Assembly: GCA_023383795.1 (NCBI GenBank)
Contig: JAHDYJ010000007.1
Coordinates: 9,363-73,362 of the forward strand
Direction: 5' to 3'
Source of the DNA: Burkholderiales bacterium
Lineage (GTDB): Bacteria > Pseudomonadota > Gammaproteobacteria > Burkholderiales > SG8-39
Length of the DNA stretch: 64,000 bases
Part shown: positions 6,440-35,767 of the stretch, one piece after another
How the letters are laid out: each line of letters begins with the position of its first letter
Position numbering within the stretch: the first letter of the stretch is position 1
Made by a program: the position numbers and the translations under genes
Notes under the pieces: generated by a model
Database searches by the model: none
Told to the model about the DNA's origin: nothing
What the model saw: the letters and a program-made list of their open reading frames with translations, nothing else

Positions 6440-6803
6440 GGGCGGCGCGACGCCGCCATGGCGGGCCGGGCGCCGGCGAAGTCCGAGCCCCGCCGATCGA
6501 GCTCCGCTTCCAATTCGTATCGCCGTTCGGCTGCTTCGCGAACCCGCGCATCGACGCGCTCGCGGCGAAATACGGCCGCGCGGTCGACTGACGCGCGACG
6601 CGGGTCGGCGTCGGCGTCACGAAGGCGGGGGCATCCAGTCGCTGCTCGGTCTGCCGCTCGAGCGAGCGACCACATCCGCCGGGGCGGGATCCACGACCCG
6701 CATCACGGTAGCGCCGGTTCGAAGCCGGTACAATCCGGAACCTCTCTTCCCCGCCCCGCGGGCCCCGCGGGCGCGCGGGAGCGCACGCCTCCGGAGATCC
6801 AGC

Positions 6804-8903
6804 ATGAGCGACCCCACTCCCTACGCCGTCCGCGACGGCATCGCCGTGATCACGATGCACAACCCGCCGGTGAACGGCCTCGGGCACCCGCTGCGCGTGG
6901 CGATCACCGAGGGCCTCCGGCGCGCCGCCGCGGACGCGGCGGTGAAGGCCGTGGTGATCATCGGCTCGGCGAAGGCGTTCTCCGGCGGCGCCGACATCAG
7001 CGAGTTCAACACGCCGAAAGCGTCGACGGACCCGACGCTGCACCAGATCATCGACATGCTGGACGCGATGCAGAAGCCGGTCGTCGCCGCGATCGGCGGC
7101 TTCGCGATGGGCGGCGGACTCGAGCTCGCGCTCGGCTGCCACTACCGCGTGGCCGCGCCCGGCACGCAGCTCGCGCTACCCGAGGTGAAGCTCGGCATCC
7201 TGCCCGGCGCGGGCGGCACGCAGCGGCTGCCGCGCGCGATCGGCGCCGAGGCGGCGCTCGAGCTCATGGTGTCCGGCAACCCTGTGACCCCGGAGAAGGC
7301 GCCGAAGGGGCTCGTCGACGAGATCGTCCAGGGCGACCTGCTCGAGCTCGCGCTCAAGTACGCGGCGAGGATCGTCGCGGAGAAGCGCCCGCTGCGCCGC
7401 CTGCGCGACGAACGGGCGACGCTCGCGGGCGATCCGGCGGCGTTCTTCAAGGCCGCCAGAGAGCGGGTCGCGAAGCAGTCGCGCGGCTATCCGGCGCCGC
7501 CGAAGATCGTCGAGTGCGTCGAGGCCGCGGTGGCGCTGCCGTTCGACGAGGGACGCAAGTTCGAGCGCGCCCGCTTCGAGGAGCTGGTGGTCACCTCCGA
7601 GTCGAAGGCGATGCGCCACGCCTTCTTCGGCGAGCGCGCGGTGGAGAAGATTCCCGACGTGCCCAAGGATATCCCGACCGTCGACGTGAAGTCCGCGGCG
7701 ATCGTCGGCGCGGGCACCATGGGCGGCGGCATCGCGATGGCGTTCGCCAACGCCGGCATTCCGGTCAGGCTCCTCGACGCGCAGCAGGACGCGCTCGAGC
7801 GCGGCATCGGCGTGATCCGCAGGAACTACTCCGCAACGGTCGAGAAGGGCCGGCTCGCGCAGGCCGACATGGACAGGCGCATGGGGCTCATCCAGCCGAC
7901 CCTCTCGTACGGCGAGATCAAGGACTGCGACCTCGTCATCGAGGCGGTGTTCGAGAAGATGGACCTCAAGCGCGAGGTGTTCCGCCGGCTCGACGAGGTC
8001 ATGAAGCCGGACGCGATCCTCGCCACCAACACCTCGACGCTCGACGTGAACGAGATCGCGGCGTCGACGAAGCGGCCCGAGAGCGTGGTCGGCCTGCACT
8101 TCTTCAGCCCGGCGAACGTGATGCGCCTGCTCGAGATCGTGCGCGGCGCGAAGACCTCGAAGAGCGTGCTCGCCTCGGCGATGAAGCTCGCCCGGCGGCT
8201 GCGCAAGGTCGGCATCGTCTCCGGCGTGTGCGACGGCTTCATCGGCAACCGCATGATGGAGGAGTACGTGCGCCAGGCGTTCTTCCTGGTCGACGAGGGC
8301 GCCGCGCCGCAGGACGTCGACAAGGCCCTGCAGGACTGGGGCATGGCGATGGGCCCGTTCGCGATGCTCGACATGGCCGGCCAGGACATCGGCTGGGCCG
8401 TTCGCAAGCGCCGCAACGAGGAATCAAAGGCGGACCCGAAGGCGCGGCCGTACTCGGGCTGGATCGACCGCGTGTGCGAGCTCGGCCGCTTCGGTCAGAA
8501 GGCGGGCGCGGGCGTGTACAAGTACGAGAAGGGCGACCGCGCGCCGCGGCCCGACCCCGAGATCGAGAAGCTGATCGACGACTACCGCCGCGAGATCGGC
8601 GTGAGCCCGCGCGGCGTGCCGGCCGGCGAGATCGTCGAGCGCTGCATCTTCGCGCTCACGAACGAGGGCGCGCGCATCCTCGAGGAGGGCATCGCGCTCC
8701 GCGCCGTGGACATCGACATGGTGTACCTCACCGGCTACGGCTTTCCGGTCTACCGCGGCGGCCCGATGTTCTACGCCGACACCGTCGGGCTCGACCGCGT
8801 GCTGGCGGCGGTCCGCGGATTCGCCAAGGGCTACCATGGCGAGTGCTGGCGGCCCGCCCCGCTCCTCGAGAAGCTCGCCGCCGCGGGCAAGACCTTCAAC
8901 TGA
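6804..8903 (+). CDS. Bifunctional enoyl-CoA hydratase / 3-hydroxyacyl-CoA dehydrogenase (FadB/FadJ-like)
   Basis: Track ORF, 699 aa. N-terminal crotonase block AFSGGADISEF, central Rossmann IVGAGTMGGGIA, then NTSTL..HFFSPANVMRLLEIV. Confidence 0.9.
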   Translation: MSDPTPYAVRDGIAVITMHNPPVNGLGHPLRVAITEGLRRAAADAAVKAVVIIGSAKAFSGGADISEFNTPKASTDPTLHQIIDMLDAMQKPVVAAIGGFAMGGGLELALGCHYRVAAPGTQLALPEVKLGILPGAGGTQRLPRAIGAEAALELMVSGNPVTPEKAPKGLVDEIVQGDLLELALKYAARIVAEKRPLRRLRDERATLAGDPAAFFKAARERVAKQSRGYPAPPKIVECVEAAVALPFDEGRKFERARFEELVVTSESKAMRHAFFGERAVEKIPDVPKDIPTVDVKSAAIVGAGTMGGGIAMAFANAGIPVRLLDAQQDALERGIGVIRRNYSATVEKGRLAQADMDRRMGLIQPTLSYGEIKDCDLVIEAVFEKMDLKREVFRRLDEVMKPDAILATNTSTLDVNEIAASTKRPESVVGLHFFSPANVMRLLEIVRGAKTSKSVLASAMKLARRLRKVGIVSGVCDGFIGNRMMEEYVRQAFFLVDEGAAPQDVDKALQDWGMAMGPFAMLDMAGQDIGWAVRKRRNEESKADPKARPYSGWIDRVCELGRFGQKAGAGVYKYEKGDRAPRPDPEIEKLIDDYRREIGVSPRGVPAGEIVERCIFALTNEGARILEEGIALRAVDIDMVYLTGYGFPVYRGGPMFYADTVGLDRVLAAVRGFAKGYHGECWRPAPLLEKLAAAGKTFN

Positions 8904-15958: not shown

Positions 15959-17137
15959 ATGAACGAAGCCGTCATCGTCTCGACCGCCCGCACCGCGCTC
16001 ACCAAGTCCTGGCGCGGTGCGTTCAACAACACCCACGGGGCGAAGCTCGGCGGCTACGCCGTCAAGCACGCGCTCGAGACCGCCGGCGTCGCGCCGGCGG
16101 AGGTCGAGGACGTGATCATGGGCTGCGCGCTGCCGGAGGGCGCCACCGGCTCGAACATCGCGCGGCAGATCGCGATCCGCGCCGGCTGCCCGGTGCGCAC
16201 GCCCGGCGTGACGGTGAACCGGTTCTGCTCGTCGGGCCTGCAGGCCGTGGCGATGGCCGCGCAGCGCATCATCGCCGGCGAGGGTGACATCTTCGTCGCC
16301 GGCGGCGTCGAGTCGATCTCGTGTGTCCAGAACGAGATGAACAGGCACATGCTCGCGAACGACTGGCTGCTGCGGCACAAGCCGGAGATCTACTGGCCGA
16401 TGCTGCAGACCGCCGAATACGTCGCGAAGAAGTACGACATCGGTCGCGAGGCGCAGGACCGCTATGGCGTGCAGAGCCAGCTGCGCGCGGCGGCCGCGCA
16501 GAAGGCGGGCAAGTTCAAGGAGGAGCTCTTCCCGATCACCGCGCGCATGAAGGTGGTCGACAAGGAGACGGGCAAGGAGAGTGTCCGCGAAGTCCTCGCC
16601 GACCGCGACGAGGGCATCCGGGCCGACACCACCTACGAGGGCGTCGCGCAGATCAAACCGGCGGTCGAGGGCGGCGTGATCGCCGCCGGCAACGCGAGCC
16701 AGTTCTCCGACGGCGCCGCGGCCTGCGTCGTGATGAACGCGAGGCTCGCCGAGCGCCGCCATCTCGCGCCGCTCGGCGTGTTCCGCGGCTTCGCGGTCGA
16801 GGGCTGCGAGCCCGCCGAGATGGGGATCGGCCCCGTGTACGCGGTGCCGAAGCTCCTCAACCGAACCGGCCTCGGGATGGACGACATCGGGCTCTGGGAG
16901 CTGAACGAGGCGTTCGCCGTGCAGGTGCTCTACTGCCGCGACAGGCTCGGCATCCCGGACGAGATCCTCAACGTGAACGGCGGCGCGATCGCGCTCGGGC
17001 ACCCGTACGGCGTCAGCGGCGCGCGGCTGGTCGGCGCGGCGCTGCTCGAAGGCAAGCGCCGCGGCGTGAAGCACGTCGTCGTGACGATGTGCGTCGCCGG
17101 CGGCATGGGCGCCGCCGGGCTGTTCGAGGTGCTTTGA
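15959..17137 (+). CDS. Acetyl-CoA C-acyltransferase (thiolase)
   Basis: Track ORF, 392 aa. Active-site blocks [41 protein letters not shown] before the ATG. Confidence 0.92.
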
Positions 17138-17206
17138 TTCGCCTCGCCATCCCCGCGCAGACCGTGATCCATGTTCGCGTAGAGAGCTCATGACCTCTGA
17201 CCTGGA

Positions 17207-17224
17207 TTCCCGCTTGCGCGGGAA
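17207..17224. repeat. REP-type hairpin TTCCCGC-TTGC-GCGGGAA
   Basis: 7-bp perfect stem, 13 nt before the GTG of the next gene. Same core as the hairpin at 55151-55170. Translates to the familiar IPAQAGI-type spurious peptide in track ORFs. Confidence 0.7.
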
Positions 17225-17236
17225 CGACAAGCAACC

Positions 17237-18787
17237 GTGCCATCGCTGAGCCTCGGCGAAGTCCTGCGGGCGAGCGCGGCGCGCAACGCGCGCCACGAGG
17301 CAATCGTCGACGGGGCGCGCCGGATCACCTACGCCGAGCTCGACGGTCGCGTCGACCGGCTGGCGCACGCGCTCGCCGCGCGCGGCGTGCGCGGCGGCGA
17401 CGTCGTCGCGGTGCTCAGCCTCAACGGGCACGAGCTGCTGGAGGCCTATTTCGCCTGCGCGCGGCTCGGCGCGGCGATGTGCCCGCTCAACCCGCGCTCT
17501 TCGGCCGAGGAGGTCGCGTGGACGCTCGGGCACGCGGGCGCGAGGCTCGTCCTCGCCGAGGCCGAGCTGCAGGGCGGACTCGAGCGCGCGGCCGATGCGA
17601 TCGAGCTCGGCGTCGTGGTCCACCGCGGCGAGCCGGCGCGCCCCGGGTGGGCGCGCTACGAGGCGCTGATCGAGGCCGCGCCGGGCGCGCCGTTCGCCGG
17701 GCCGGAGCCGCAGGCCGACGCGCCGGTGCTGCTCCTGTACACGCTGAAGGGCCAGGGCGAACCGCTCGGCGCGACGCTCAGCCACGCGAACGTGCTCGCG
17801 GACACGCTCACCGCCCTCACCTACGCGCGCCTCGACGCGCGCGACCGCGTGCTGCAGGGCATGCCGCTCAACCACGTCGCCGGGCTGCACATCCTGACCA
17901 TCGCAGCGCTCGTCCAGGGCGCGACGGTGGTGATCGCACGGCAGTGGCGGCCGGACATCGTGTGCGAGCTCGTCGCGCGCGAGCACTGCACGATCACGGT
18001 CATGGTGCCGACCGCGTTGCGCCAGCTGCTCGAGAGCGAGGCGCTGGCGCGCGCCGACCTGCGCTCGCTCACGCGGGTGATCGGCGCCGCCGGCCAGTAC
18101 GACCGCGCGCTCTTCGCCGAGGCGCTCTACCGCCTGCGCCTGGAGCAGATGCTGTTCGGCTACGGGCTCACCGAGGCCTCCCCGATCGTCACCGTCGCGG
18201 CGACGAGCGCCGAGACGCTCTGGAAGGAGAACGCGCTCGGCTGGCCGGTCTGGTACAACCGCGTGCGCCTCGTCCGGAGCGACGGCACCGACGCGCCGCC
18301 GGGCGAGTCCGGCGAGATCCGGGTCAAGGGCCCCAACGTCTTCCTCGGCTATCACGACGCGCCGCTCGCCACGGCTGCGGCGCTCACGCCCGACCGGTGG
18401 CTGCGCACCGGCGATCTCGCGACGATGGACGCCGAGGGGTGCCTCTTCTTCGCCGGGCGCCTCGGCGCGAGCATCAAGTCGGGCGGCGAGAACGTCGACG
18501 CGATCGAGGTCGAGCAGGCGATCCTCGCGTGCGCGCCGGAGGTGCGCTCGGCCGCGGTCGTCGGCCGGCGCGATCTGAAGTGGGGCGAGCGGGTGATCGC
18601 CTGCTGCACGCTGCACGCCGGCCGCACGCTCGATGCCGCCGAGCTCGGGCGCCGGCTGCGCGAGCGGCTGGCGGGATTCAAGCTGCCGCGCGAGGTGCAC
18701 TTCCTCGACGCGCTGCCGCTCACCGAATCGGGCGCGATCGATCGTGCGCGCCTGCATGCGCTGCTCGATGGCGCGGTGCGCAAGTGA
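17237..18787 (+). CDS. ANL-superfamily (acyl-CoA ligase-like) protein with degenerate core motifs
   Basis: Track ORF, 516 aa (GTG start). Keeps GYGLTE, GEIRVKGPNVFLGY, RTGDLA, GRLGASIKSGGENV. However, the P-loop reads YTLKGQGEPLG and the C-terminal Lys position reads SGAIDR. Confidence 0.8.
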   Translation: MPSLSLGEVLRASAARNARHEAIVDGARRITYAELDGRVDRLAHALAARGVRGGDVVAVLSLNGHELLEAYFACARLGAAMCPLNPRSSAEEVAWTLGHAGARLVLAEAELQGGLERAADAIELGVVVHRGEPARPGWARYEALIEAAPGAPFAGPEPQADAPVLLLYTLKGQGEPLGATLSHANVLADTLTALTYARLDARDRVLQGMPLNHVAGLHILTIAALVQGATVVIARQWRPDIVCELVAREHCTITVMVPTALRQLLESEALARADLRSLTRVIGAAGQYDRALFAEALYRLRLEQMLFGYGLTEASPIVTVAATSAETLWKENALGWPVWYNRVRLVRSDGTDAPPGESGEIRVKGPNVFLGYHDAPLATAAALTPDRWLRTGDLATMDAEGCLFFAGRLGASIKSGGENVDAIEVEQAILACAPEVRSAAVVGRRDLKWGERVIACCTLHAGRTLDAAELGRRLRERLAGFKLPREVHFLDALPLTESGAIDRARLHALLDGAVRK

Positions 18788-18836
18788 AGCTGCAGCGGCT
18801 CACGGCGCGGCTGAGCTCTCGCACCCCCCACCCCTG

Positions 18837-18858
18837 CCCTTCCCCTTAAGGGGGAGGG
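18837..18858. repeat. GC-rich palindrome CCCTTCCCCTT/AAGGGGGAGGG (member of a CCCTCCCCC..GGGGGAGGG hairpin family)
   Basis: Read directly. Lies between convergent genes 17237..18787(+) and 18935..19600(-). Confidence 0.6.
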
Positions 18859-18934
18859 TCCCTTCTTCCCGCGCCCTGATCTTGTCGCCCGCCCGGCGGA
18901 GAGCGGGCCCGCGCGGGGGCCGAGCGCCCTGGCG

Positions 18935-19600
18935 CTACCGCTGCGCGTGCATTCCCTTCGCCTCCGAAGCGAGGGGGAGGGTCAGGGTGGCGGTCGGGCG
19001 CCTCGCGCGCCTGCGCTTCGCCGCGCGCGCCGCCGCCGGCACGAACACCGCCAGCAGGTCGTCGGCGAGCTCGGCGATGCCGAGCGGCCCGTCGCGCTGG
19101 TACCACTGCAGCGTCCAGTTGAGCGCGCCGAGCATCGCGAGGCGCAGCAGCCTGAGATCGCCGCTCACCAGCCCCGCGGCGGCGGCCTCGTCGAGCACCT
19201 CGCGCCACATCGCCTCGACCTCGTCGCGCAGGCCGACGACGCGCCGGCGCGGCCGCGCCGCGAGGCTGCGCCACTCCTGGATCACGACCGCCTGCTCGTC
19301 GCCGCCGCCGTGCAGCGCGGTCAGGTGGCCGAGGAAGAGCGCGCGCAGCCGCTCGAGCGGCGAATCGGCCGCCGCGAGCGGCCCGCGGGCGGCGGCGGCG
19401 AACTGCCGCATCCCCTCGAGCATCACCGCCACGAGCAGCTCCTCCTTGCTCGCGAAGTGATAGAAGATGCTGCCCGACTGGACGCCGACCGCGCGCGCGA
19501 TCTCGCGCGCCGTGGTGCGCTCGTAGCCGTAGCGGCGGAAGAGCGCGGCCGCGGCGGCGATCAGCCGGCGGCGGCGCTCCGGGTCCTCGGGGCGGGCCAT
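18935..19600 (-). CDS. TetR-family transcriptional regulator
   Basis: Track ORF, 221 aa. N-terminal HTH LFRRYGYERTTAREIARAVGVQSGSIFYHFASKEELL. Confidence 0.9.
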   Translation of the reverse strand: MARPEDPERRRRLIAAAAALFRRYGYERTTAREIARAVGVQSGSIFYHFASKEELLVAVMLEGMRQFAAAARGPLAAADSPLERLRALFLGHLTALHGGGDEQAVVIQEWRSLAARPRRRVVGLRDEVEAMWREVLDEAAAAGLVSGDLRLLRLAMLGALNWTLQWYQRDGPLGIAELADDLLAVFVPAAARAAKRRRARRPTATLTLPLASEAKGMHAQR

Positions 19601-19602
19601 GG

Positions 19603-19672
19603 CGCATTCTAGGCGGCGCCCATTAACTGAGCAAGCGCTTGATTAATTCCCCGGGCGCGGCCTAGAATGGCG
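19603..19672. promoter_or_regulatory. Divergent promoter/operator region with a 17-bp inverted repeat; each arm carries TAGAAT
   Basis: Left arm CGCATTCTAGGCGGCGCC (19603-19620) and right arm GGCGCGGCCTAGAATGG (19654-19670) match at 16/17 positions when reverse-complemented. Plus strand: TTGATT (19639-19644), 18 nt, TAGAAT (19663-19668). The only AT-rich patch lies between the arms. Confidence 0.4.
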
Positions 19673-19701
19673 CGGTCGCCCGTTCCGCCCTCCCCCCGCC
19701 C

Positions 19702-20631
19702 ATGAGCGAAGCCCTGCAGTGGCCCACCTTGCGCCGCATCGTCGTCGTCGGCGGCGGCGGGCTCATGGGCCACGGGATCGTCGCCGCCTGCCTGGCCGGT
19801 CACCCGACCGCCGAAGTGCATCTCGTCTCGCGCCGCCGGGAGTCGCTCGAGCACGGCATGGCGCTCCTGCGGAGCGGCCCCTTCGGGCTCGAGAACCTGG
19901 TGAAGAAGGGCAAGCTCTCCGGGGAAGCCCTCGCGGCGGCGCTCGAGCGCGTGCGTCCCGGCCTCGACATCGGCGCGGCAGCCGGCGGGGCCGAGCTCGT
20001 CTTCGAGACCGTCCCCGAGGCGGTCGCGGCCAAGCATGCGGTGCTCCGCGAAGTGGAGGCGGCTGCGCCCCGCTCGGCGATCATCGCCACGAACACGTCG
20101 TCGATCATGATCGGCGAGCTCGCCGGCGCGCTCGCGCATCCCGAGCGCCTGGTCGGGACGCACTGGTTCTACCCGGCGAACGTGATGCCGCTGGTCGAGG
20201 TGGCGCGCGGCGAGCAGACCGCGCCGTGGGCGGTCGACGCCGTCGTGGACTTCCTCGCGCGCCTGCGCAAGAAGCCGGTGGTCGTGAACGACGCGCCGGG
20301 CTTCTTCACCACCCGCTTCATCAACCTCTTCATCGCCGAGGCGATGCGCTCGGTGGAGAGCGGCATCTGCGGCATCGCCGAGGTCGACGAGATGGTGAAG
20401 ACCGGCCTCGGCTGGCCGATGGGCGTGTTCGAGCTCCTCGACAGGACCGCGTCGTTCGATTCCTGGTACCACGCGCAGGAGTACCTGCACGCGACGCTCG
20501 GCGAGCGCTACGCGGTGCCGCCGATCGCGCGCCGCGTGTTCGGCGCCGGCTACCGCGGCGCGCCCGCGCTCAAGCCCGGCAGCCGCGGCGGCTGGTACGA
20601 CTATTTCGGGTTGAGACCCCCGAGCCGATGA
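19702..20631 (+). CDS. 3-hydroxyacyl-CoA dehydrogenase (3-hydroxybutyryl-CoA dehydrogenase family)
   Basis: Track ORF, 309 aa. Rossmann VVVGGGGLMGHGIV, ATNTSS, HWFYPANVMPLVEV, PGFFTTRF. Confidence 0.88.
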   Translation: MSEALQWPTLRRIVVVGGGGLMGHGIVAACLAGHPTAEVHLVSRRRESLEHGMALLRSGPFGLENLVKKGKLSGEALAAALERVRPGLDIGAAAGGAELVFETVPEAVAAKHAVLREVEAAAPRSAIIATNTSSIMIGELAGALAHPERLVGTHWFYPANVMPLVEVARGEQTAPWAVDAVVDFLARLRKKPVVVNDAPGFFTTRFINLFIAEAMRSVESGICGIAEVDEMVKTGLGWPMGVFELLDRTASFDSWYHAQEYLHATLGERYAVPPIARRVFGAGYRGAPALKPGSRGGWYDYFGLRPPSR

Positions 20632-20640
20632 TTGGACCGG

Positions 20641-20712
20641 GCGATATGCAAGGGGAGCGCTCGCCCTGTTCGTACGGCTGCTCCCCGCAGCCGCCAGAGC
20701 CCGTTCGCTCTG
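20641..20712. repeat. Intergenic hairpin cluster containing the CCTGTTCGTACG box
   Basis: ATATGCAAGGGGAGCGCTCGCCCTGTTCGTACG, followed by perfect 6-bp stems GGCTGC/GCAGCC and CAGAGC/GCTCTG. The box recurs at 1151-1168, 1206-1223, 23768-23783 and 23806-23822. Confidence 0.6.
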
Positions 20713-20743
20713 GAAGCTGCCACTGCTGCAACGGAGAAATGTC

Positions 20744-21931
20744 ATGAACGAGGTCGTGATCGTCGAGGCCTGCCGGACCGCGCAGGGCACGTTCGGCGGA
20801 ACGCTGCGCGACGTCCCGGCGCACGCGCTCGCGCGCCACGTCGTGAAGGAGGCCGTGCGGCGCGCCGGCATCGATCCGCTCGAGATCGAGGGCGTCGCGA
20901 TGGGCCAGGTCTACCAGAGCTCGGAGGCGCTCAACATCGCGCGCTTCTGCGCGATGGAGGCGGACCTGCCCTTCGCCGTCGCCGGCTACTCGGTGAACGC
21001 CGCGTGCTGTTCCTCGCTCGAGGCGGTGAGCTGCGCGGTGCGCGACATCGCCTGCGGCGACGCCCAGGTCATGATCGGCGCGGGCGTCGAGAACATGAGC
21101 GCCGCGCCCTACCGCGTCACCGGGCATCGCTGGGGCATGCGGCGCGGCCATTCGGAGATCATCGACCAGTTCGAGGAATCGACCTGGAGCGCATCGACGT
21201 ACAGGTTCGGCCGCTTCAACATGGGCATGTCGGGCGACCACATCGCGAAGGTCTACGGCATCTCGCGCGCCGAGCAGGACGAGTACGCGCTGCGCTCGCA
21301 GCAGCTCGCCGTGCGCTCGATCGACTGCGGCGCCTTCGCCGCCGAGATCACGCCGGTCACCGTGCAGACGCGCGCCGGTCAGGTCGAGTTCGCGGTGGAC
21401 GAGCACCTACGCCGCGACACCTCGCTCGAGAAGCTCGCGCGGCTCAAGCCGAGCTTCGGCGAGGGCGGCACGGTCACCGCCGGCAACGCCTCGGGCGTGA
21501 GCGACGGCGCCTCCGCCGTGCTGCTGATGTCGCACGCCAAGGCCGCTGCGCTCGGCGTCAAGCCGCTCGCGAGGTTCCGCAGCACCGCGCGCGTCGGCGT
21601 CGATCCGCGCCTGATCTGCATGAGCCCGGGCCCGGCGGGCAAGCTCGCGGTGGAGCGCGCCGGGCTGCGGCCGAAGGACATCGGCTGGTGGGAGATCAAC
21701 GAAGCGTTCGCCTCGGTCGTGCTGGCGTCGATGAAGGAGCTCGACATCGGCCTCGAGCGCGTGAACCCCGCCGGCGGCGGCATCGCGCTCGGGCATCCGG
21801 TCGGCAACAGCGGCTGCCGGACGCTGGTGACGATGGTGCACGCGATGCGCCGCGAGGGCATCCGTTACGGCTGTTGCACGATCGGCGGCGGCGGCGGCAT
21901 CGCCACGGCCGCGGTGCTCGAGCTTTGCTAG
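20744..21931 (+). CDS. Thiolase-family acetyl-CoA acyltransferase
   Basis: Track ORF, 395 aa. NAACCSSLEAV, GHPVGNSGCR, CCTIGGGGGIATA. GGAGAA before the ATG. Confidence 0.88.
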   Translation: MNEVVIVEACRTAQGTFGGTLRDVPAHALARHVVKEAVRRAGIDPLEIEGVAMGQVYQSSEALNIARFCAMEADLPFAVAGYSVNAACCSSLEAVSCAVRDIACGDAQVMIGAGVENMSAAPYRVTGHRWGMRRGHSEIIDQFEESTWSASTYRFGRFNMGMSGDHIAKVYGISRAEQDEYALRSQQLAVRSIDCGAFAAEITPVTVQTRAGQVEFAVDEHLRRDTSLEKLARLKPSFGEGGTVTAGNASGVSDGASAVLLMSHAKAAALGVKPLARFRSTARVGVDPRLICMSPGPAGKLAVERAGLRPKDIGWWEINEAFASVVLASMKELDIGLERVNPAGGGIALGHPVGNSGCRTLVTMVHAMRREGIRYGCCTIGGGGGIATAAVLELC

Positions 21932-21946
21932 ACAGGAGAGAGACCG

Positions 21947-23713
21947 ATGAGCGCTGTGCTCGAACCGCAGGGCAAAGGTGCGGCGGAAGGCGCCGCGGCC
22001 GCGCCGGCCGAGTATCCGCCGCAATTCAACCCGGAATTCCTCGAGGCGACGCGCCGGCTCGAGCACGAGTGGCGCGCGAAGTTCGACGCCGTCGCGCGGA
22101 AATTCGGCGTCGACCCGGCCGCCTATCAGCGCCGCACCGACTCCGGCCTGCCGGTGAAGCCGGCGTACTTCCCGCACGACGTGGCCAACGGCCGCTACGA
22201 CATGCTGACCGCGCCGGGCGTGTATCCGTTCACCCGCGGCCTTTACCCGGCGCAGTACCAGTTCATGTACTGGGCGAACCAGCCGGTGATCGGGTACGGC
22301 CTGCCGGAGGACACGCGCAAGCGCATGGACTACCTCGAGCGGCAGGGGATGACCGGGTACTTCGGCAACACGTTCTACAACCTGGTGTACGACCTCGTCT
22401 CGCACGAGGGCCTCGATCCCGACCACCCGGCCGCCGAGGGGCGCGTCGGGCAGTGCGGGATGGCGGTCTACTCGGTCGAGGACAACGCTCGGCTCTTCGA
22501 CGGTCTCGCGCTCGACAGGATCAACGTCATCCACATCTCGTACTACGAGGTGCTGCCGGTGCTCGCGCACTACCTCGCCTACGCGCGGCGGCGCGGCGTG
22601 CCCTGGTCGAAGCTCGGCGGCAACTCGATGAGCTGGTACTACCAGAGCGCCTACGTCGGCATGACCTGCTTCCCGCCCAAGGGCGGCATGGACCTCGCGG
22701 TGGAGCTCGTCAACTTCTGCACCCGCGAGATGCCGCGCTGGAACACGGTCAACATCTTCGGCTACGGGATGGAGGAGGCCGGCGCCACCGCGGTGCAGGA
22801 GGTCGCGTTCTCGGTCGCGGCGGGCATCGACTACGCGCGCGCCTGCGTCGCGAGCGGGCTCGCGCCGGACCGGTTCCTCTCGCGCTTCGGGTTCCAGATC
22901 TCGCAGTCGAACGACTTCTTCGAGGAGATCTGCAAGATCCGCGCGCTGCGCCGCCTGTGGGCGCGCAAGTGCCACGCGCTCGGCGCGCGCGACCCGAAGA
23001 GCATGCACGTCCGCATCCATACGCACACGGCCGGCTCGGTGCTCACCGCGCAGCAGCCGCTCAACAACCTGATCCGTACCACGCTGCACGCCTTCGGCGC
23101 CGCGCTTTCCGGCACCCAGGCGATGGAGGTGAGCTCGTTCGACGAGGCGCTCGCGATCCCGACCGAGCACGCGCACACGATGGCGCTCAGGATCCAGCAG
23201 ATCATCCAGGAGGAGTCGGGCATCACGCGCGTCGCCGACCCGCTCGGCGGCTCCTACTACGTCGAAGCGCTGACCGACCAGATCGAGGCGGCGGCGGAGA
23301 GGATCTTCGACGCGGTCGAGGCGCGCGGCGGCTACCACAAGTGCCACGACTTCGTGCGCTCGTCGATCGAGGAGAGCGCCGCGCGCTGGCGCGACCAGGT
23401 CGACGCGAAGGAGCGGATCGTCGTCGGCATGAACAAGTACGAGTCGGCCGAGGTGCAGGACATCGAGATCTTCCGCGTCGACCCGGAGAGCGAGCGCATC
23501 GCGGTCGAGCGGGTGCGCGGGTTGCGCGCGCGCCGCGACGCGAAGCGCTGGGAGGCCGCGATGGCGGCGCTCGACGCCGCCGCCGGGCGCTTCGCCGGCG
23601 GCGAGATCGGCGTCCTGATGCCGGCGATGATCGAGGCCGCCGACGCCGACGCCACGACCGGCGAGCTGATGGGCGTGCTCAAGAAGCGCGTGGGGTGGGG
23701 CTCTCCTTACTAG
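21947..23713 (+). CDS. Acyl-CoA mutase-like large (substrate-binding TIM-barrel) subunit, highly divergent
   Basis: Track ORF, 588 aa, AGGAGAGAG before the ATG. Family blocks YPFTRG, EEAGATAVQEVAF, FFEEICKIRALRRLWA, FDEALAIPTE, DPLGGSYYVEALT. Several canonical substrate-contact blocks are replaced (see findings). Confidence 0.8.
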   Translation: MSAVLEPQGKGAAEGAAAAPAEYPPQFNPEFLEATRRLEHEWRAKFDAVARKFGVDPAAYQRRTDSGLPVKPAYFPHDVANGRYDMLTAPGVYPFTRGLYPAQYQFMYWANQPVIGYGLPEDTRKRMDYLERQGMTGYFGNTFYNLVYDLVSHEGLDPDHPAAEGRVGQCGMAVYSVEDNARLFDGLALDRINVIHISYYEVLPVLAHYLAYARRRGVPWSKLGGNSMSWYYQSAYVGMTCFPPKGGMDLAVELVNFCTREMPRWNTVNIFGYGMEEAGATAVQEVAFSVAAGIDYARACVASGLAPDRFLSRFGFQISQSNDFFEEICKIRALRRLWARKCHALGARDPKSMHVRIHTHTAGSVLTAQQPLNNLIRTTLHAFGAALSGTQAMEVSSFDEALAIPTEHAHTMALRIQQIIQEESGITRVADPLGGSYYVEALTDQIEAAAERIFDAVEARGGYHKCHDFVRSSIEESAARWRDQVDAKERIVVGMNKYESAEVQDIEIFRVDPESERIAVERVRGLRARRDAKRWEAAMAALDAAAGRFAGGEIGVLMPAMIEAADADATTGELMGVLKKRVGWGSPY

Positions 23714-23754
23714 AACCGATCTCAAAATGCGAATGCGGTCGCGAAAGAGGGGAT

Positions 23755-23923
23755 CTACAAAAGGCTCGCCCCTTGTTCGTTCGGGATATACACAAGGGGC
23801 AATCTGCCCCTTGTTCGTACGACCTCGGTTCGGGAAGAAGCACGGCCGCGATTCTGAGATAGCCTCTGACCCTTCCCCGCAGGGGAAGGCACGACGCTCC
23901 CTCCCCCTTTGTGAGGGGGAGGG
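23755..23923. repeat. Composite repeat block inside the mutase inter-subunit spacer
   Basis: Two CCCCTTGTTCGT(T/A)CG boxes, the second within a perfect 9-bp hairpin ACAAGGGGC-AATCT-GCCCCTTGT (23792-23814). Then CCTTCCCC-GCA-GGGGAAGG (23871-23889) and CCCTCCCCC-TTTGTGA-GGGGGAGGG (23899-23923). Confidence 0.75.
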
Positions 23924-23986
23924 TCGGGGAGGGGGTGGCGCGGGCGCCTCCTCGCTATGATGACCCGCACAAGAACGGAACCAGTT

Positions 23987-24400
23987 ATGACCGACCGAAT
24001 CATCCGCGTGCTGCTCGGCAAGACCACCATGGAGTGCCACGACCGCGGCGTGCGCTATCTTGCGACCAAGCTTCGCGACGCGGGCATGGAGGTGGTGTTC
24101 ATCAACTTCCTCGAGCCGCGCGAGATCATCGACGTCGCCGTCGACGAGGACGTCGACGTGATCGGCATCTCGAGCTCGGTCGAGGGCCACATTCCGGTCG
24201 CGCGCGAGGTCATGCGCCGCCTGCGGGAGCGCGCGATGGAGGATGTCCTGGTGGTGTTCGGCGGCGTGATCCCCGAGCGCGACATCGGCCCGATGAAGGA
24301 GATGGGAGTCCGCGAGGTCTTCGGGCCGGGCTCGTCGGCCGAGGCGTTCATCGGGTTTCTCCGGGCCAACGTCCGGGAGCGGCACTTCGCCGCCGAATAG
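23987..24400 (+). CDS. Cobalamin-binding small subunit of the mutase-like enzyme
   Basis: In track ORF 23957..24400; I prefer ATG 23987 (MTDRIIRVLLGK..), which matches the short N-terminus of known small subunits. B12-binding fold blocks DVIGISSS and VVFGGVIP. The DxHxxG loop reads ECHDRG. Confidence 0.8.
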   Translation: MTDRIIRVLLGKTTMECHDRGVRYLATKLRDAGMEVVFINFLEPREIIDVAVDEDVDVIGISSSVEGHIPVAREVMRRLRERAMEDVLVVFGGVIPERDIGPMKEMGVREVFGPGSSAEAFIGFLRANVRERHFAAE

Positions 24401-24512
24401 GCTCCGCCGCCGGGACGTCGGCATCGCACGCGTTCGCGGCAATGAAGGCACAATCTCGTCGTCGGGCCCGGGCAGCTTCCGGGCTCAAACATCACCCACA
24501 GGGGAGGGGAAA

Positions 24513-25829
24513 ATGAAACGAAGCATCGTGGTCGGCACGATCGCCTCGCTCGCGCTTTTCGGTGCTCCGGCACTCGCGCAGAACGAGCAGTTCTTTCCGA
24601 TGAACGGCTACTGGGTGGGCCCGTACGCGGCCGGCGGATCGGCGATCTTCGGCGGCATGATCGACTACATGGCGATGGTGAACGCCCGCGACGGGGGCGT
24701 GGGCGGGGTCAGACTCACCTGGGAGAAGTGCGAGACCGAGTACAACAACGCGCGCGGAGTCGAGTGCTACGAGCGCCTGAAGACCAAGGGTCCGACCGGG
24801 GCGACGCTGGTGCATCCGCTCTCCACCGGCATCACCTACTCGCTGATCGAGAAGGCGACGGGCGACAAGATCCCGCTGGTGACCCTCGGGTACGGGCGCA
24901 CCGATGCGACCGACGGGCGGGTGTTCCCGTACATCTTCCCGCTGATCACCAACTACTGGTCGCAGAGCACCGCCAAGATCAAGTTCATCGGCATGCGCGA
25001 AGGCGGGATGGACAAGTTGAAGGGCAAGAAGATCGTGAACGTCTATCACGACTCGGCCTACGGCAAGGAGACCATCCCGATCCTCGACGCCCAGGCGAAG
25101 AAGTACGGGTTCCAGGTCACGCACATCCCGGTGGCGCACCCGGGCAACGAGCAGGGGGCGCAGTGGCTGCAGGTGCGCCAGATCCGGCCCGACTGGGTGA
25201 TCCTGCGCGGCTGGGGGGTGATGAACCCGACCGCGATCAAGGCGGCGCAGCGGGTCGGCTTCCCGCGCAACAAGATGCTGGGCGTGTGGTGGTCCGGCGC
25301 CGAGGAAGACACCATCCCGGCCGGCGACGCGGCGAAGGGCTACATCGCCGCCGGCTTCAACGTCTCCGGAACCAACTACCCGGTGATCAAGGACATCGAG
25401 AAGCACGTCTACGCCAAGAGCAAGGGCGAGATGGAGGACCGCTCGCGGCTGGGCAGCATCCTGTACAACCGCGGGGTGGTGCACGGCATCATCAACGTCG
25501 AGGCGCTGCGCACCGCGCAGGCCAAGTTCGGCAAGAAACCCCTCACCGGCGAGCAGGTTCGCTGGGGGCTCGAGAACCTGAACATCGACGAGAAGCGCCT
25601 GAAGGAGATCGGGGCGACCGGCTTCATGCAGCCGCTCAAGGTCTCGTGCATGGACCACGAGGGCGGCGGCGCGGTGAAGTTCCTGCAGTGGGACGGCGCG
25701 AAATGGAACGTGATCAGCGACTGGATCACCTCCGATCAGTCGCTCGTGCGTCCGATGGTCGAGCAGTCGGCCGCCAGGTACGCGAAGGAGAAGAACATCA
25801 CCCCGCGCGACTGCGCGAAAGAAGGCTGA
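24513..25829 (+). CDS. ABC-transporter periplasmic substrate-binding protein (Leu/Ile/Val-binding-protein-like family), orphan
   Basis: Track ORF, 438 aa. Signal peptide MKRSIVVGTIASLALFGAPALAQ; AGGGGAGGGGAAA before the ATG. No permease or ATPase gene adjacent. Confidence 0.8.
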   Translation: MKRSIVVGTIASLALFGAPALAQNEQFFPMNGYWVGPYAAGGSAIFGGMIDYMAMVNARDGGVGGVRLTWEKCETEYNNARGVECYERLKTKGPTGATLVHPLSTGITYSLIEKATGDKIPLVTLGYGRTDATDGRVFPYIFPLITNYWSQSTAKIKFIGMREGGMDKLKGKKIVNVYHDSAYGKETIPILDAQAKKYGFQVTHIPVAHPGNEQGAQWLQVRQIRPDWVILRGWGVMNPTAIKAAQRVGFPRNKMLGVWWSGAEEDTIPAGDAAKGYIAAGFNVSGTNYPVIKDIEKHVYAKSKGEMEDRSRLGSILYNRGVVHGIINVEALRTAQAKFGKKPLTGEQVRWGLENLNIDEKRLKEIGATGFMQPLKVSCMDHEGGGAVKFLQWDGAKWNVISDWITSDQSLVRPMVEQSAARYAKEKNITPRDCAKEG

Positions 25830-33030: not shown

Positions 33031-34773
33031 TCAGCCGCCCGCCGCCGGGTCGACCGGCGCGAGCACGACGTGGACGAGCGCGAGCTGCCCGCGCGCGACC
33101 GCCGCGAGCCCGCGCGCGAGCGCGGCGCGCACCTCGCCGGGCGCGGCGACCGTCTCGCCGCGGCCGCCGTAGGCGCGCGCGAGCGCCGGATAGTCGGGGC
33201 GCGGCGCGATCGCGGTCCCGGCGAACCTCCCGGTGCGCACCGCCCACCCGTCGGGGAACTCCTTCGCGACGTCCGACTTCTGCGAGAGATAGCCGGCGTT
33301 GTCGAACAGCACGACGAGGATCGGCAGGGCGTGCTCCTGCGCCGCGCCGAACGAAGCGGGCACCGGGTTGTAGTGGAGCGCGCCGTCGCCGATCGTGGCG
33401 ACCACCGTGCGCCCGGGCGCGGCGGCCTTGACCCCGAGCGCGGTGCCGAGCCCGACGCCGAGGCCGCCGTAGCTCGCCTCGAAGAAGGCGCCCGGCCCGA
33501 GCCGATCGAGGATGCGCACGACGTCGAGCCGGTGGGTGATCGTCTCGTCGACGACGATCGCGTCGGCGGTGAGCAGCTCCCCGAGCTCGTGCACGACCCA
33601 GCGCGTCTCGATCGGCGAGCGTCCGCCCGCGGCGCGCGCCTCTGCGCGCACCGCCGCGCGCCGCGCGTCGTGCCGCTCGCGCCAGCGCTGGGCGATCGCG
33701 GCGCGCGACCCGGAAGCCACGACGGCCTGCACCCGCTCGAGGAGCATCGCGAGCGAGCGCTCGGCGTCGCCGGTCGCTACGAGATCGGCGCGGAAGCCCC
33801 ATGCGGGCAACTGTGGTCCGAGCGGCGCCTCGCCGAGCGCGACGACCCGCGTCCCCGGCGCCGGCAGCGCGGACGGCGGATGCCAGGGCGCCACCGCCTC
33901 GACGAGAAAGACGAGGTCCGCCTCGGCGAGCAGCGCCTCCATCTCCGTCGCCGCCACGCCGCCGTAGAGCGGGTGCGCGCGCGGGAAGTTGACGTAGGTC
34001 GGCTGCCACGCCTCGACCACCGGCGCGCCGAGCGTCTCCGCGAGCGCGACGAGCCGCGCCACCGCGGCGACGCTCCGGCCCGCCTGCTCGGTCACGATCA
34101 CCGGATTCCTCGCTTCGCACAGCGCGCGAGCGAGCTCGTCGAGCGTCGCCGGGTCGGCCGACGGCGCGCGCGGGAGCGCCGCCGCCGGCGGTTCGGCGGT
34201 CATCGGCGCCATCAGGAACTCGACCGGCACCGAGAGGAACGTGGGGCCGCCCGGCGCCGCCACGGCGAGCTGCGCCGCACGCTGGACGGCGTGAGGCAGC
34301 AGCCGGCTCGTGGTCGCGGCGGCGCTCCACTTCACGCACGGCGCGACGAGCCGCGCCGGCCCGCCGACGTCGGCGAGCAGGCGCAGCCACTGGCGGCCCG
34401 GATCCGGGACGTCCGGCGCTTCGCCAAACGCGATCGACTCGCCGGCGAGCACCACCATCGGGATGCGCTCGTGCAGCGCCGCGCGCAGGCCCATCGTCGC
34501 GTGCAGCGCGCCGACCGTTGTGTGGAGCACCACGGCGGGCAGCTTGCCGGTCGCTCTTGCGTAGCCGCTCGCCATGGCGACCGCCGTCATCTCGTGCCGC
34601 ACCGACGTGTACGCGGGCACCTCGTCCGGCCGGTACGGCCTCGCGAGCGCCTCCCAGAGCGGCGCCCAGTCCGAGCCCGGCGAGGCGAAGATGCGCTCGA
34701 CGCCCATCGCGCGCAGCACGCGGAGCAGCGCCTCGGCGCCGGTCGCGCCCGTCACGCGCGTCGTCCCGCTCAT
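33031..34773 (-). CDS. Thiamine-diphosphate-dependent enzyme, acetolactate-synthase-like family (second copy in window)
   Basis: Track ORF, 580 aa. GVERIFASPGSDWAP, VRHEMTAVAMASGYA, ThDP motif IGDGALHYN..VLFDNAGY. Confidence 0.85.
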   Translation of the reverse strand: MSGTTRVTGATGAEALLRVLRAMGVERIFASPGSDWAPLWEALARPYRPDEVPAYTSVRHEMTAVAMASGYARATGKLPAVVLHTTVGALHATMGLRAALHERIPMVVLAGESIAFGEAPDVPDPGRQWLRLLADVGGPARLVAPCVKWSAAATTSRLLPHAVQRAAQLAVAAPGGPTFLSVPVEFLMAPMTAEPPAAALPRAPSADPATLDELARALCEARNPVIVTEQAGRSVAAVARLVALAETLGAPVVEAWQPTYVNFPRAHPLYGGVAATEMEALLAEADLVFLVEAVAPWHPPSALPAPGTRVVALGEAPLGPQLPAWGFRADLVATGDAERSLAMLLERVQAVVASGSRAAIAQRWRERHDARRAAVRAEARAAGGRSPIETRWVVHELGELLTADAIVVDETITHRLDVVRILDRLGPGAFFEASYGGLGVGLGTALGVKAAAPGRTVVATIGDGALHYNPVPASFGAAQEHALPILVVLFDNAGYLSQKSDVAKEFPDGWAVRTGRFAGTAIAPRPDYPALARAYGGRGETVAAPGEVRAALARGLAAVARGQLALVHVVLAPVDPAAGG

Positions 34774-34804
34774 GGCGTCCGGCCGCGGAAGCGGTCGCGC
34801 ATGG

Positions 34805-35767
34805 CTACTCGCCGCGGATCCCGAGCTGGGGCAGGAGCTTCGCGTAGCGCGCGCTCTCGGCCCGCACGTAGCCGGCGAACGCCTCCGGCGTCATCGGCGC
34901 GGCGATCTGCAGGCCGGTCGACTCGAGCTGCTTGCGCAGCGCCGGATCCTTCAGGAGCTGCGTGACCTCGCGGTTCATCCGCTGCACGACTTCGCCCGGC
35001 GTGCCCGCCGGCGCGTAGAACCCGAAATACGGGCCGCCGTCCACGCCGCGCACGCCGGCTTCGGCGAGCGTCGGCACGTCGGGGAAGTCCGGCCGGCGCT
35101 GCTCGGCGCAGACCGCGAGCATCCGCAGCCGCCCGGCCCGCACGTGCTCGAGCGCGATGCCCGGATCGAAGACCGCCTGCACGTGTCCGCCGAGCAGGTC
35201 CTTGATCGCGGGGCCGGCGCCCTTGTAGGGCACGTGCGTGATGTCGGCGCCGGTCTCGAGCTTGAACACCTCGGCCGCGATGTGCAGCGCCGTGCCGGTT
35301 CCGGCCGTGCCGTAGCTCACGCGGCCCGGATTGGCCCGCGTGTAGCTCACGAACTCGGCGACGCTCTTCGCCGGGACCGACGGATGGACCTCCAGGTGCA
35401 TGGTGATCGTGACCGCCGGCGCGATCGGCACCAGCGTCTTCAGCGGATCGAGGTTCGGTCGTTTGCCGACGTGGGGCGCGATCATCACGTTGCTCCCCGG
35501 CGTGAAGAGCAGCGTGTAGCCGTCGGCCGGCAACTGGGCGAGCGCCTGGAACCCGACGTAGCCGTCGCCGCCCGGCCGGTTCTCGACCAGCATCGGCTGC
35601 CCGAGCGCCTCCTGCAGGCGCGTCGCGAGCAGGCGCGCGGTGCGGTCGGCCACGCCCCCCGGTGCGACGTTCACCATCAGCTTGACCGGCTGGGTCGGCC
35701 ACTGCTGCGCGTGCGCCGCGCCGGCGAAGGCCGCGGCGGCCAGCATCACTGCGATCGACTTCGTCAT
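34805..35767 (-). CDS. Bug/TctC-family (tripartite tricarboxylate transporter) substrate-binding protein
   Basis: Last 320 aa of track ORF 34805..37207, starting MTKSIAVMLAAAAFAGAAHAQQWPTQPVKLMV at 35767 with GGAGGGGAGA upstream. ..YKGAGPAIKDLLGGHV.. is typical of Bug proteins. Confidence 0.88.
   Translation of the reverse strand: MTKSIAVMLAAAAFAGAAHAQQWPTQPVKLMVNVAPGGVADRTARLLATRLQEALGQPMLVENRPGGDGYVGFQALAQLPADGYTLLFTPGSNVMIAPHVGKRPNLDPLKTLVPIAPAVTITMHLEVHPSVPAKSVAEFVSYTRANPGRVSYGTAGTGTALHIAAEVFKLETGADITHVPYKGAGPAIKDLLGGHVQAVFDPGIALEHVRAGRLRMLAVCAEQRRPDFPDVPTLAEAGVRGVDGGPYFGFYAPAGTPGEVVQRMNREVTQLLKDPALRKQLESTGLQIAAPMTPEAFAGYVRAESARYAKLLPQLGIRGE

Follow-up and report, generated by a model that had tools for sequence, protein, structure and literature searches.

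A probable TetR-repressed catabolic operon built on an uncharacterised clade of adenosylcobalamin-dependent acyl-CoA mutases in a Burkholderiales bacterium

A 64,000-nucleotide stretch of a Burkholderiales genome (the window; G+C content 68–75%; coordinates below refer to it) carries at 15959–25829 a gene cluster centred on a two-subunit acyl-CoA mutase. The large, substrate-binding subunit (mutL, 21947–23713, + strand; PF01642, E = 2.6e-155) and the small, cobalamin-binding subunit (mutS, 23957–24400, +; PF02310, E = 8e-22; start codon placement uncertain within the first ~10 codons) are preceded by genes for an NAD-dependent 3-hydroxyacyl-CoA dehydrogenase (HADH, the first gene of the operon; 19702–20631, +; 3HCDH_N and 3HCDH domains) and for a thiolase of the short-chain acetoacetyl-CoA/BktB-like type (thiolase 2; 20744–21931, +; Pfam and TIGR01930). 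They are followed by a gene for a periplasmic solute-binding protein (SBP) of the LivJ/Peripla_BP_6 type (24513–25829, +; Pfam; 510 bits to PDB 4RU0), an orphan in the window: no ABC permease or ATPase gene lies beside it there. A gene for a TetR-family repressor, the predicted local regulator of the operon (18935–19600, −; Pfam TetR_N and TetR_C_24), points away from the HADH gene, with a 101-bp spacer between them. Upstream, thiolase 1 (15959–17137, +; Thiolase_N and Thiolase_C; NCBIfam PRK07108 at 727 bits, cut-off 615) and an ANL-superfamily protein with degenerate adenylation motifs (17237–18787, +; AMP-binding and AMP-binding_C domains) form a separate unit, convergent with tetR. Pfam and NCBIfam give strong family matches for every gene that the initial annotation had named, each where it had been placed, and the divergence of tetR from the HADH gene holds as well. 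The neighbours that flank the cluster are unrelated: an inorganic pyrophosphatase, a two-component pair, a cyclase-family protein and a molybdopterin dehydrogenase subunit.

The tetR–HADH spacer holds the sole σ70-like promoter match that a promoter scan finds in 11 kb: a −35 box TTGATT (19639–19644) and a −10 box TAGAAT (19663–19668) separated by 18 nt. Together with a palindrome, TTAACTGAGCAAGCGCTTGATTAA (19623–19646, core 19627–19642), it makes up a candidate operator and promoter at 19623–19668 (+); the right half of the palindrome is the −35 box of the HADH-side promoter, and 17-nt inverted-repeat arms (19605–19621 and 19653–19669) flank it. A 16-nt box, YYRAGCRRGCGCTTGA (idealised as TCAAGCG-AG-CGCTTGA), occurs once per locus and at the same position in 17/17 loci of the beta/gamma-proteobacterial type, and the 4.9-Mb genome has a single exact copy. 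Because the box sits at the operon promoter in all of these loci and is unique in the genome, TetR is predicted to be the dedicated local regulator of the operon. A genome-wide search for a second operator site returned one intragenic match with a single mismatch (contig C10), which was treated as chance. In alpha-proteobacterial/Acidimicrobiia loci (L014–L045), a different palindrome, TAACGnACGnnCGTTA, lies just before mutL; several alpha-proteobacterial loci repeat it ahead of the thiolase gene that diverges there, and this TetR lineage presumably uses it as its operator.

From 19.7 to 25.8 kb, a site scan turns up nothing like a terminator on the + strand, and the operon is likely co-transcribed. 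The 243 nt of the mutL–mutS spacer (23714–23956, +) are predicted to fold at −115.6 kcal/mol (z = −2.9) into a GC-rich stack of hairpins without a U-tract. In relatives, mutL and mutS nearly abut and the long spacer is absent; its appearance suggests insertions resembling repetitive extragenic palindromic (REP) elements. GC-rich hairpin elements also fill the spacer between the HADH and thiolase 2 genes (20632–20743).

Is this cluster more than a chance assembly of acyl-CoA genes? Its relatives, found by tblastn with the window proteins and the proteins of two annotated relatives, were compared with other mutase loci, counting only loci in which the mutase has 3 kb or more of sequence to either side: 28 loci of the clade to which the window mutase belongs (from Pseudomonadota, Actinomycetota and Methylomirabilota) and 21 others, a Thermaerobacter (Bacillota) locus being inspected apart. 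HADH and thiolase genes each adjoin the mutase in 27/28 clade loci, against 1/21 and 0/21 of the others; a tetR gene does so in 24/28 (0/21), a gene for a MeaB-type G-protein in 22/28 (4/21) and an enoyl-CoA hydratase (ECH)-family gene in 15/28 (1/21). The mutase-linked HADH is orthologous throughout (54–79% identity), and the linked thiolases belong to two lineages that are only ~35–40% identical to each other, which speaks for a functional linkage over one that is simply inherited. In the beta- and gamma-proteobacterial architecture, tetR (−) diverges from meaB-HADH-thiolase-mutL-mutS-ECH-like, often with a FadD11-like ligase gene next; in the alpha-proteobacterial/Acidimicrobiia architecture, a thiolase gene (−) diverges from mutL-mutS-HADH-tetR-meaB, sometimes with an ECH-like gene next. 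The Thermaerobacter locus reads HADH-thiolase-mutS-mutL-tetR-CoA-transferase, and that of Methylomirabilia mutL-mutS-HADH-thiolase. When all neighbours were clustered, no further widely shared gene appeared: no ligase, transferase, transporter or acyl-CoA dehydrogenase is conserved.

The gene order HADH-thiolase-mutL-mutS-SBP that the initial annotation put forward as a unit is thus conserved in part: HADH, thiolase and the TetR_C_24 regulator accompany the mutase across phyla in two gene orders, the exact order is confined to the closest relatives, and the binding protein drops out as a conserved member, following mutS only in the window and in locus L001. A small subgroup (the window, L001–L004 and L011) has lost meaB and the ECH-like gene and has gained the upstream thiolase/ANL pair; thiolase 1 is linked to the cluster only there. 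The window cluster accordingly has no MeaB gene, and the three in the genome all lie beside other mutases only. By its shared context and its operator, the locus reads as a real co-regulated catabolic module.

What kind of mutase does this module serve? The mutL product matches the PF01642 profile over positions 1–512 of 512, that is, the full-length TIM-barrel substrate domain, and scores 463 bits against TIGR00641 (cut-off 304). Among solved structures it is about equidistant from human methylmalonyl-CoA mutase (MCM, 338 bits) and from HcmA, the large subunit of 2-hydroxyisobutyryl-CoA mutase (HCM; PDB 4R3U, 320 bits). The clade is sharply bounded at ≥57% identity; the next matches in genomes are ordinary proteins of the isobutyryl-CoA mutase (ICM) or MCM type at ~40%, and a library of representatives at 50% identity yields one deeper member, at 51% identity, that carries the clade signature. 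In a maximum-likelihood tree, the clade is monophyletic (support 1.0), its stem measuring 1.13 substitutions per site. Its members come almost entirely from uncultured genomes, being found in metagenome-assembled genomes of Burkholderiales, Steroidobacteraceae, Roseiarcus, Hyphomicrobiales, Rhodospirillaceae, Rhodobacteraceae, Acidimicrobiia, Methylomirabilia and Thermaerobacter, and they are rare: among 201 sampled genomes of the window's order, the only one with a member is the window's own. A search of the available literature for this mutase clade found no description of it.

The clade is set apart by seven altered blocks of mutL, essentially invariant over ~120 homologues with identities as low as 58%, which marks the clade as coherent and under selection; the divergence of the active site that had been noticed from the window alone is therefore real and shared. 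WANQPVIGY stands in place of the usual WT(I/M)RQ(Y/F/I)AGF, so that Tyr89 of MCM (Ile90 of HcmA) becomes Val and the RQ of the conserved WT(I/M)RQ block becomes QP; GYFGNTFYNLVYDL replaces a shorter (A/D)FD block, with a 6-residue insertion and Val for Asp117 of HcmA; and GNSM(S/N)WY(Y/H)Q replaces the whole of GT(I/V)QNDILKE. In the region of MCM Arg207 and the ICM Gln, SAYV-GM leaves Gly/Met where the specificity residue was. FGYG(M/I/V)EEA has Gly where the usual GYH has His244 of MCM, IHTHT(S/A)G has His for Gln330, and MEVS(S/A)(F/Y)DE has Ser for Asn366 while keeping Glu370. The Gln197 equivalent is replaced as well, and those of Tyr243 and Glu370 are retained. (HcmA numbering was mapped onto the 4r3u chain through the mutL–structure alignment.) One of these changes concerns His244 (Propionibacterium shermanii numbering), the catalytic His of MCM that hydrogen-bonds the thioester carbonyl and reportedly assists the rearrangement in all acyl-CoA mutases studied. 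The window protein and nearly all sampled clade members have GYG, one has GYE, and the MCM-, ICM- and HCM-type references all keep His.

These residues match the specificity signatures of neither HCM, MCM nor ICM. In HcmA, Ile90 reportedly sets specificity and Asp117 binds the substrate hydroxyl, as Kurteva-Yaneva and co-workers are said to have found in 2015; in the clade, both positions are invariably Val. Nor is the Tyr89/Arg207 pair of MCM present (Val at 89, Gly/Met at 207), nor the Phe/Gln pair of ICM, which the ICM-type outgroups in the alignment display (F, Q) and for which the clade again has Val and Gly/Met. The alignment points to a hydrophobic pocket, without Arg, Gln or Asp at the specificity positions. 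The protein is nonetheless predicted to be a working B12 enzyme and not a relic, because mutS keeps the His and Gly of its cobalamin-binding His-on motif (DxHxxG), Tyr243 and Glu370 are retained, and MeaB is adjacent in 22 of the 28 relatives. The motif is DxHDRG in most clade members and ECHDRG in the window subgroup, a conservative change of Asp to Glu. Beyond the clade lies a wider radiation of uncharacterised acyl-CoA-mutase-like proteins with G, D, N or S at the His244 position (P0126, P0128, P0129, P0130 and P0132; L097 and L098), in which MeaB and the B12-binding subunit are still present wherever the context is known.

Of the partner enzymes, HADH keeps its catalytic Ser and His/Glu motifs, and thiolase 2 has the catalytic Cys/His/Cys motifs. 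Their short-chain character is suggested because acetoacetyl-CoA thiolases and BktB are the nearest solved structures to thiolase 2, and a 3-hydroxybutyryl-CoA dehydrogenase is the nearest to HADH. In all mutase-linked HADH orthologues (L001–L045), the Asn of GFxxNR is replaced by Thr (GFF(M/T)TRF), a second hint, at the level of sequence, of an unusual substrate that they share.

The mutase is one of seven PF01642 proteins encoded in the genome (on contigs C57, C86, C193, C35, C109 and C126, and in the window). Among them are a canonical MCM (C109), the fused isobutyryl-CoA mutase IcmF (C126), the mutase of a canonical hcm cluster (C57) and, on C86 and C193, two more that are divergent. Both of the latter have GQH; the C193 protein has His at the Gln330 position, and genes for TetR, MeaB, an aldolase-like protein, a thioesterase and an acyl-CoA dehydrogenase lie near that on C86. 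The hcm cluster on C57 is complete and matches the published arrangement, GntR diverging from hcmB-hcl-meaH-hcmA (PMC7176365). Since 2-hydroxyisobutyrate (2-HIBA) is already covered by these genes, the window mutase should act on something else, as the initial annotation had supposed.

How would a substrate reach the mutase? The ANL gene upstream of tetR had been taken for a ligase; its family and its position stand, and its ligase motifs do not. The P-loop reads YTLKGQGEPLG instead of (S/T)SG(S/T)TGxPKG and Ala takes the place of the A10 lysine (ESGAIDR); 5 orthologues share the two changes, and two canonical ligases in the same alignment retain both features. The ANL protein is, on these motifs, unlikely to be the activating enzyme. 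It looks like a non-canonical ANL protein that has been maintained, with a PRK07108-type thiolase as its partner. Better candidates lie on contig C157, where an operon (C157:2105–9382) encodes a complete set in the order FadD11-like ligase, livG, livH, livM, SBP, livF. The window SBP is 83% identical to the SBP of this operon and 58–60% identical to the SBPs that L009 and L012 encode among transporter genes linked to their mutase clusters; the C157 ligase and permeases share 63–64% identity with the counterparts that are attached to the mutase operon in L041, L009 and L012; and in L012 and L041, operator copies also precede the livHM permease genes. The C157 operon offers a plausible transporter for the orphan SBP and, judging by these orthologues, a plausible ligase for the pathway.

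The available evidence makes it somewhat better than an even bet that the cluster is a TetR-repressed catabolic operon built on an adenosylcobalamin (AdoCbl)-dependent acyl-CoA mutase of an uncharacterised clade that feeds HADH and thiolase; probably, it degrades an unusual branched or hydroxylated acid. In the proposed sequence of events, the free organic acid would be imported by the Liv-type ABC system, of whose SBP the window SBP would be a recent copy, and activated to its CoA ester, likely by the FadD11-like ligase encoded with the transporter on C157 and not by the window ANL protein. The acyl-CoA, or a product derived from it, would release TetR from the palindrome overlapping the −35 box. 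Acting on an acyl-CoA of short or medium length, the mutase would then move the thioester carbon to the neighbouring carbon, turning a skeleton that resists β-oxidation into a substrate of the (S)-3-hydroxyacyl-CoA dehydrogenase, whose product would be cleaved by the short-chain-type thiolase 2. What we infer from this arrangement is which way the pathway runs, that HADH acts on the mutase product, what TetR responds to and what sort of substrate is used.

As to the chemistry, the odds appear evenly balanced on a rearrangement outside the characterised set (methylmalonyl-, ethylmalonyl-, isobutyryl-, pivalyl- and 2-hydroxyisobutyryl-CoA), carried out in a rebuilt, His-less active site and feeding the dedicated dehydrogenase and thiolase directly. 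A 3-hydroxyacyl-CoA can arise by a 1,2-shift of the thioester only from a 2-hydroxy-2-alkylacyl-CoA; in the reverse direction, a 4-hydroxyacyl-CoA would give a 2-methyl-3-hydroxyacyl-CoA. The most likely single chemistry, held tentatively and at something under even confidence, is an HCM-like one, in which a 2-hydroxy-2-alkylacyl-CoA other than 2-hydroxyisobutyryl-CoA is converted into a 3-hydroxyacyl-CoA that goes straight to HADH and thiolase. For the broader reading of a new rearrangement, candidate substrates are longer tertiary 2-hydroxy acids, or 4-hydroxy and 4-oxo acids by way of 2-methyl-3-hydroxyacyl-CoA. Two apparent hints of 4-hydroxybutyrate were dropped, the Thermaerobacter CoA-transferase being nearer to butyryl-CoA:acetate transferase and a Methylomirabilia gene nearer to HpaB, both below the NCBIfam cut-off. 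If such a new rearrangement does take place, the clade would define a new B12-dependent entry into β-oxidation.

Several observations weigh against the HCM-like reading, beginning with the gene context from which it grew. The initial annotation argued from the lack of dehydrogenase and hydratase genes that the mutase product already bears a 3-hydroxy group. Around the window cluster the premise stands: Pfam and NCBIfam scans find no acyl-CoA dehydrogenase or ECH-family gene within ~10 kb of the cluster, the nearest ECH-family gene being a FadB-like ECH+HADH fusion (6246–8903) with unrelated genes between. Among the relatives it does not: the ECH-family gene found in 15 of the 28 directly follows mutS, so the absence is predicted to be a derived state of the window subgroup and not a conserved one. 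In L007, L037 and L041, a divergent unit on the minus strand encodes an SCPx-type thiolase and an acyl-CoA dehydrogenase, and in L037 and L041 extra operator copies lie just upstream of it. Because an HCM-type route needs neither ECH-family nor acyl-CoA dehydrogenase partners, both count against it. Deeper relatives, moreover, have the orders NMO-MeaB-mutL-mutS-ECH or MeaB-mutL-mutS-ECH-ligase, with no HADH or thiolase gene nearby. The linkage of HADH and thiolase to the clade as against other mutases has Fisher p values of ~1e-11 to 1e-13; the loci are not phylogenetically independent, and these values overstate the support and are upper bounds on significance; all the same, the trend seen over several phyla and both gene orders is plain. 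The mutase itself adds further doubts: the position of the presumed hydroxyl binder Asp117 is Val; with Gly for His244, the chemistry may differ; and in the tree, the clade is not sister to the genome's own HcmA and groups loosely with other divergent paralogues. An AlphaFold2 model built from 32 clade sequences puts MCM and HCM alike on top in Foldseek (TM score 0.67–0.70), confirming the family and giving no finer call; its predicted local distance difference test score (pLDDT) is 70.5 and falls below 50 at the active-site segments. The rearrangement of a 2-hydroxy- to a 3-hydroxyacyl-CoA thus stays a candidate and loses its place as the sole simple reading.

What the ECH-family partners do bears on the alternatives. 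The linked proteins (ech_a, ech_b and the Acidimicrobiia types) lack both crotonase glutamates, which the FadB reference and the L098 relative do have; they carry a single acidic residue, in an SPD/CPE motif, at the position of PaaG-like isomerases, and their nearest structures are unassigned ‘hydratase/isomerases’ and ECI2. By these residues, they are probably not hydratases. An ECH-like orthologue (54–60% identity to the operon-linked ones) lies immediately to the left of the window on the same contig (C223:7889–8650), shows the same non-hydratase active-site pattern (LCPEAASS) and adjoins a gene for a DmdB-like ligase of the 3-methylthiopropionyl-CoA-ligase family, whose 5′ part is window 1–1059 (−). 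In two of the loci with the SCPx-type thiolase, a gene for an AccC-like stand-alone biotin carboxylase lies between tetR and the thiolase gene (L007 4448–6547; L037 2635–4008), preceded in L037 by an operator copy.

The alternative that survives best, though it is unlikely, is a mutase like ICM or pivalyl-CoA mutase whose substrate is a branched acyl-CoA without a hydroxyl group (isobutyryl-, 2-methylbutyryl-, pivalyl-type or longer), with dehydrogenase and hydratase supplied from elsewhere in the genome. A substrate of this kind is what the initial annotation had given as grounds for refuting its own reading. The hydrophobic pocket without Arg, Gln or Asp would suit such a mutase, as would the resemblance of HADH and thiolase to the enzymes that oxidise butyryl-CoA at the C4 level, the wider regulon of some relatives, with an acyl-CoA dehydrogenase in three related loci (operator-preceded in two) and an ECH-family gene in most, and an anaerobe-like relative with an NMO/enoyl-reductase-like gene upstream. 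An acyl-CoA dehydrogenase is present, however, in only ~5 loci and in 0/26 of the alpha/Acidimicrobiia type, while HADH and thiolase are near-universal; the ECH-family partners have no hydratase Glu pair, and the ICM Phe/Gln signature is missing from the mutase of a genome that already has IcmF.

Distinctly improbable is a mutase that works in the direction of MCM, converting a 4-hydroxy- or 4-oxoacyl-CoA (levulinyl-CoA, for example) into a 2-methyl-3-hydroxy- or 2-methyl-3-oxoacyl-CoA. This would be an analogue of the succinyl-CoA to methylmalonyl-CoA step with a neutral group in place of the carboxylate, after which HADH and thiolase would yield propionyl-CoA and an acyl-CoA, and the ECH-family partner would serve as a C2 epimerase or isomerase. 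Such a route needs exactly a mutase, HADH and thiolase, and no acyl-CoA dehydrogenase; it agrees with the loss of the carboxylate binder Arg207 from a hydrophobic pocket and with ECH-family partners whose lone acid at a PaaG/isomerase-like position suits a proton-shuffling enzyme. SCPx-type thiolases handle 2-methyl-branched 3-oxoacyl-CoAs, and one accompanies the operon in Burkholderiales-type loci, operator-preceded in two. Yet the argument is purely inferential: a literature search found no levulinyl-, 4-hydroxyvaleryl- or 2-methylacetoacetyl-CoA mutase, thiolase 2 is of the acetoacetyl-CoA type, and the SCPx thiolase and the ECH-like gene are missing from the window cluster and from many loci.

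That the mutase-like protein is no carbon-skeleton mutase, being a dead scaffold or a B12 enzyme for another 1,2-shift (of a hydroxyl group, for instance), can practically be set aside: Gly for His244, the replaced equivalents of Gln197, Gln330 and Asn366 and the change of RQ to QP would fit, but the replacement residues are kept strictly from phylum to phylum, the B12-binding subunit has stayed intact, most loci have a dedicated MeaB, and the wider His244-less radiation keeps MeaB and the small subunit.

The acyl-CoA mutase specificities known so far are few, and with each came a pathway: propionate, the ethylmalonyl-CoA route, methyl tert-butyl ether (MTBE)/2-HIBA and pivalate. A clade that spans several phyla with fixed partners (HADH, thiolase, TetR and MeaB) and with nearly all substrate contacts changed is a defined target for a new B12-dependent reaction, and the window offers three independent handles on its substrate: a binding protein and a repressor that are both dedicated, the latter with a defined predicted operator, and an assay coupled through NAD. 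B12 mutases that produce or use up hydroxyacyl-CoAs are in demand for synthetic pathways (PMC11599936).

How does the module compare with known systems? With ICM/IcmF and pivalyl-CoA mutase, it shares the hydrophobic pocket without Arg at the 207 position; unlike them, the window mutase has neither the Phe/Gln signature nor His244 and is not fused to MeaB, IcmF being encoded separately. The sbm-ygfD-ygfG-ygfH operon of Escherichia coli encodes MCM, a MeaB-type G-protein, a crotonase-family methylmalonyl-CoA decarboxylase and a CoA-transferase. Relatives of the window cluster repeat its MeaB-mutase-crotonase-family order, sometimes with a CoA-transferase or ligase, and there too the crotonase-family member is no hydratase; in contrast to sbm, the clade is without the Arg207 carboxylate binder, HADH and thiolase have been added, and the window cluster has neither MeaB nor a crotonase-family gene.

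Among the closest known systems is HcmAB of Aquincola tertiaricarbonis, from which PDB 4R3U derives. Both have split large and small subunits and the AdoCbl family fold (Foldseek TM ~0.7, 34% identity), both have a small aliphatic residue at the Tyr89/Ile90 position, and the 2-HIBA pathway follows the same logic of mutase, 3-hydroxyacyl-CoA dehydrogenase and thiolase. They differ in the active site, where the window clade has Val for Asp117, Gly for MCM His244, the 6-residue insertion and a replaced QNDILKE block; in the tree, where the clade is not sister to HcmA and a true hcm cluster is present in the same genome; and in context, which is TetR, HADH and thiolase in the window and GntR, hcl and meaH in the HCM operon (PMC7176365). 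In the acetone degradation route of Desulfococcus biacutus, as described in PMC7176365, a B12 acyl-CoA mutase of the RcmAB type and a 3-hydroxybutyryl-CoA dehydrogenase feed a thiolase; unlike that route, the window cluster has no linked thiamine diphosphate (ThDP)-dependent lyase. The ThDP enzyme at 33031–34890 is unrelated in context and, considered as a 2-hydroxyacyl-CoA lyase, was rejected as PRK08327/benzoylformate-decarboxylase-like. HcmAB, RcmAB and the Desulfococcus acetone route are precedents for pathways that couple a mutase to a 3-hydroxyacyl-CoA dehydrogenase (PMC7176365). In its predicted logic, the window module works like these routes; in specificity residues, context and phylogeny it departs from HCM, and it bears the signatures of neither MCM nor ICM.

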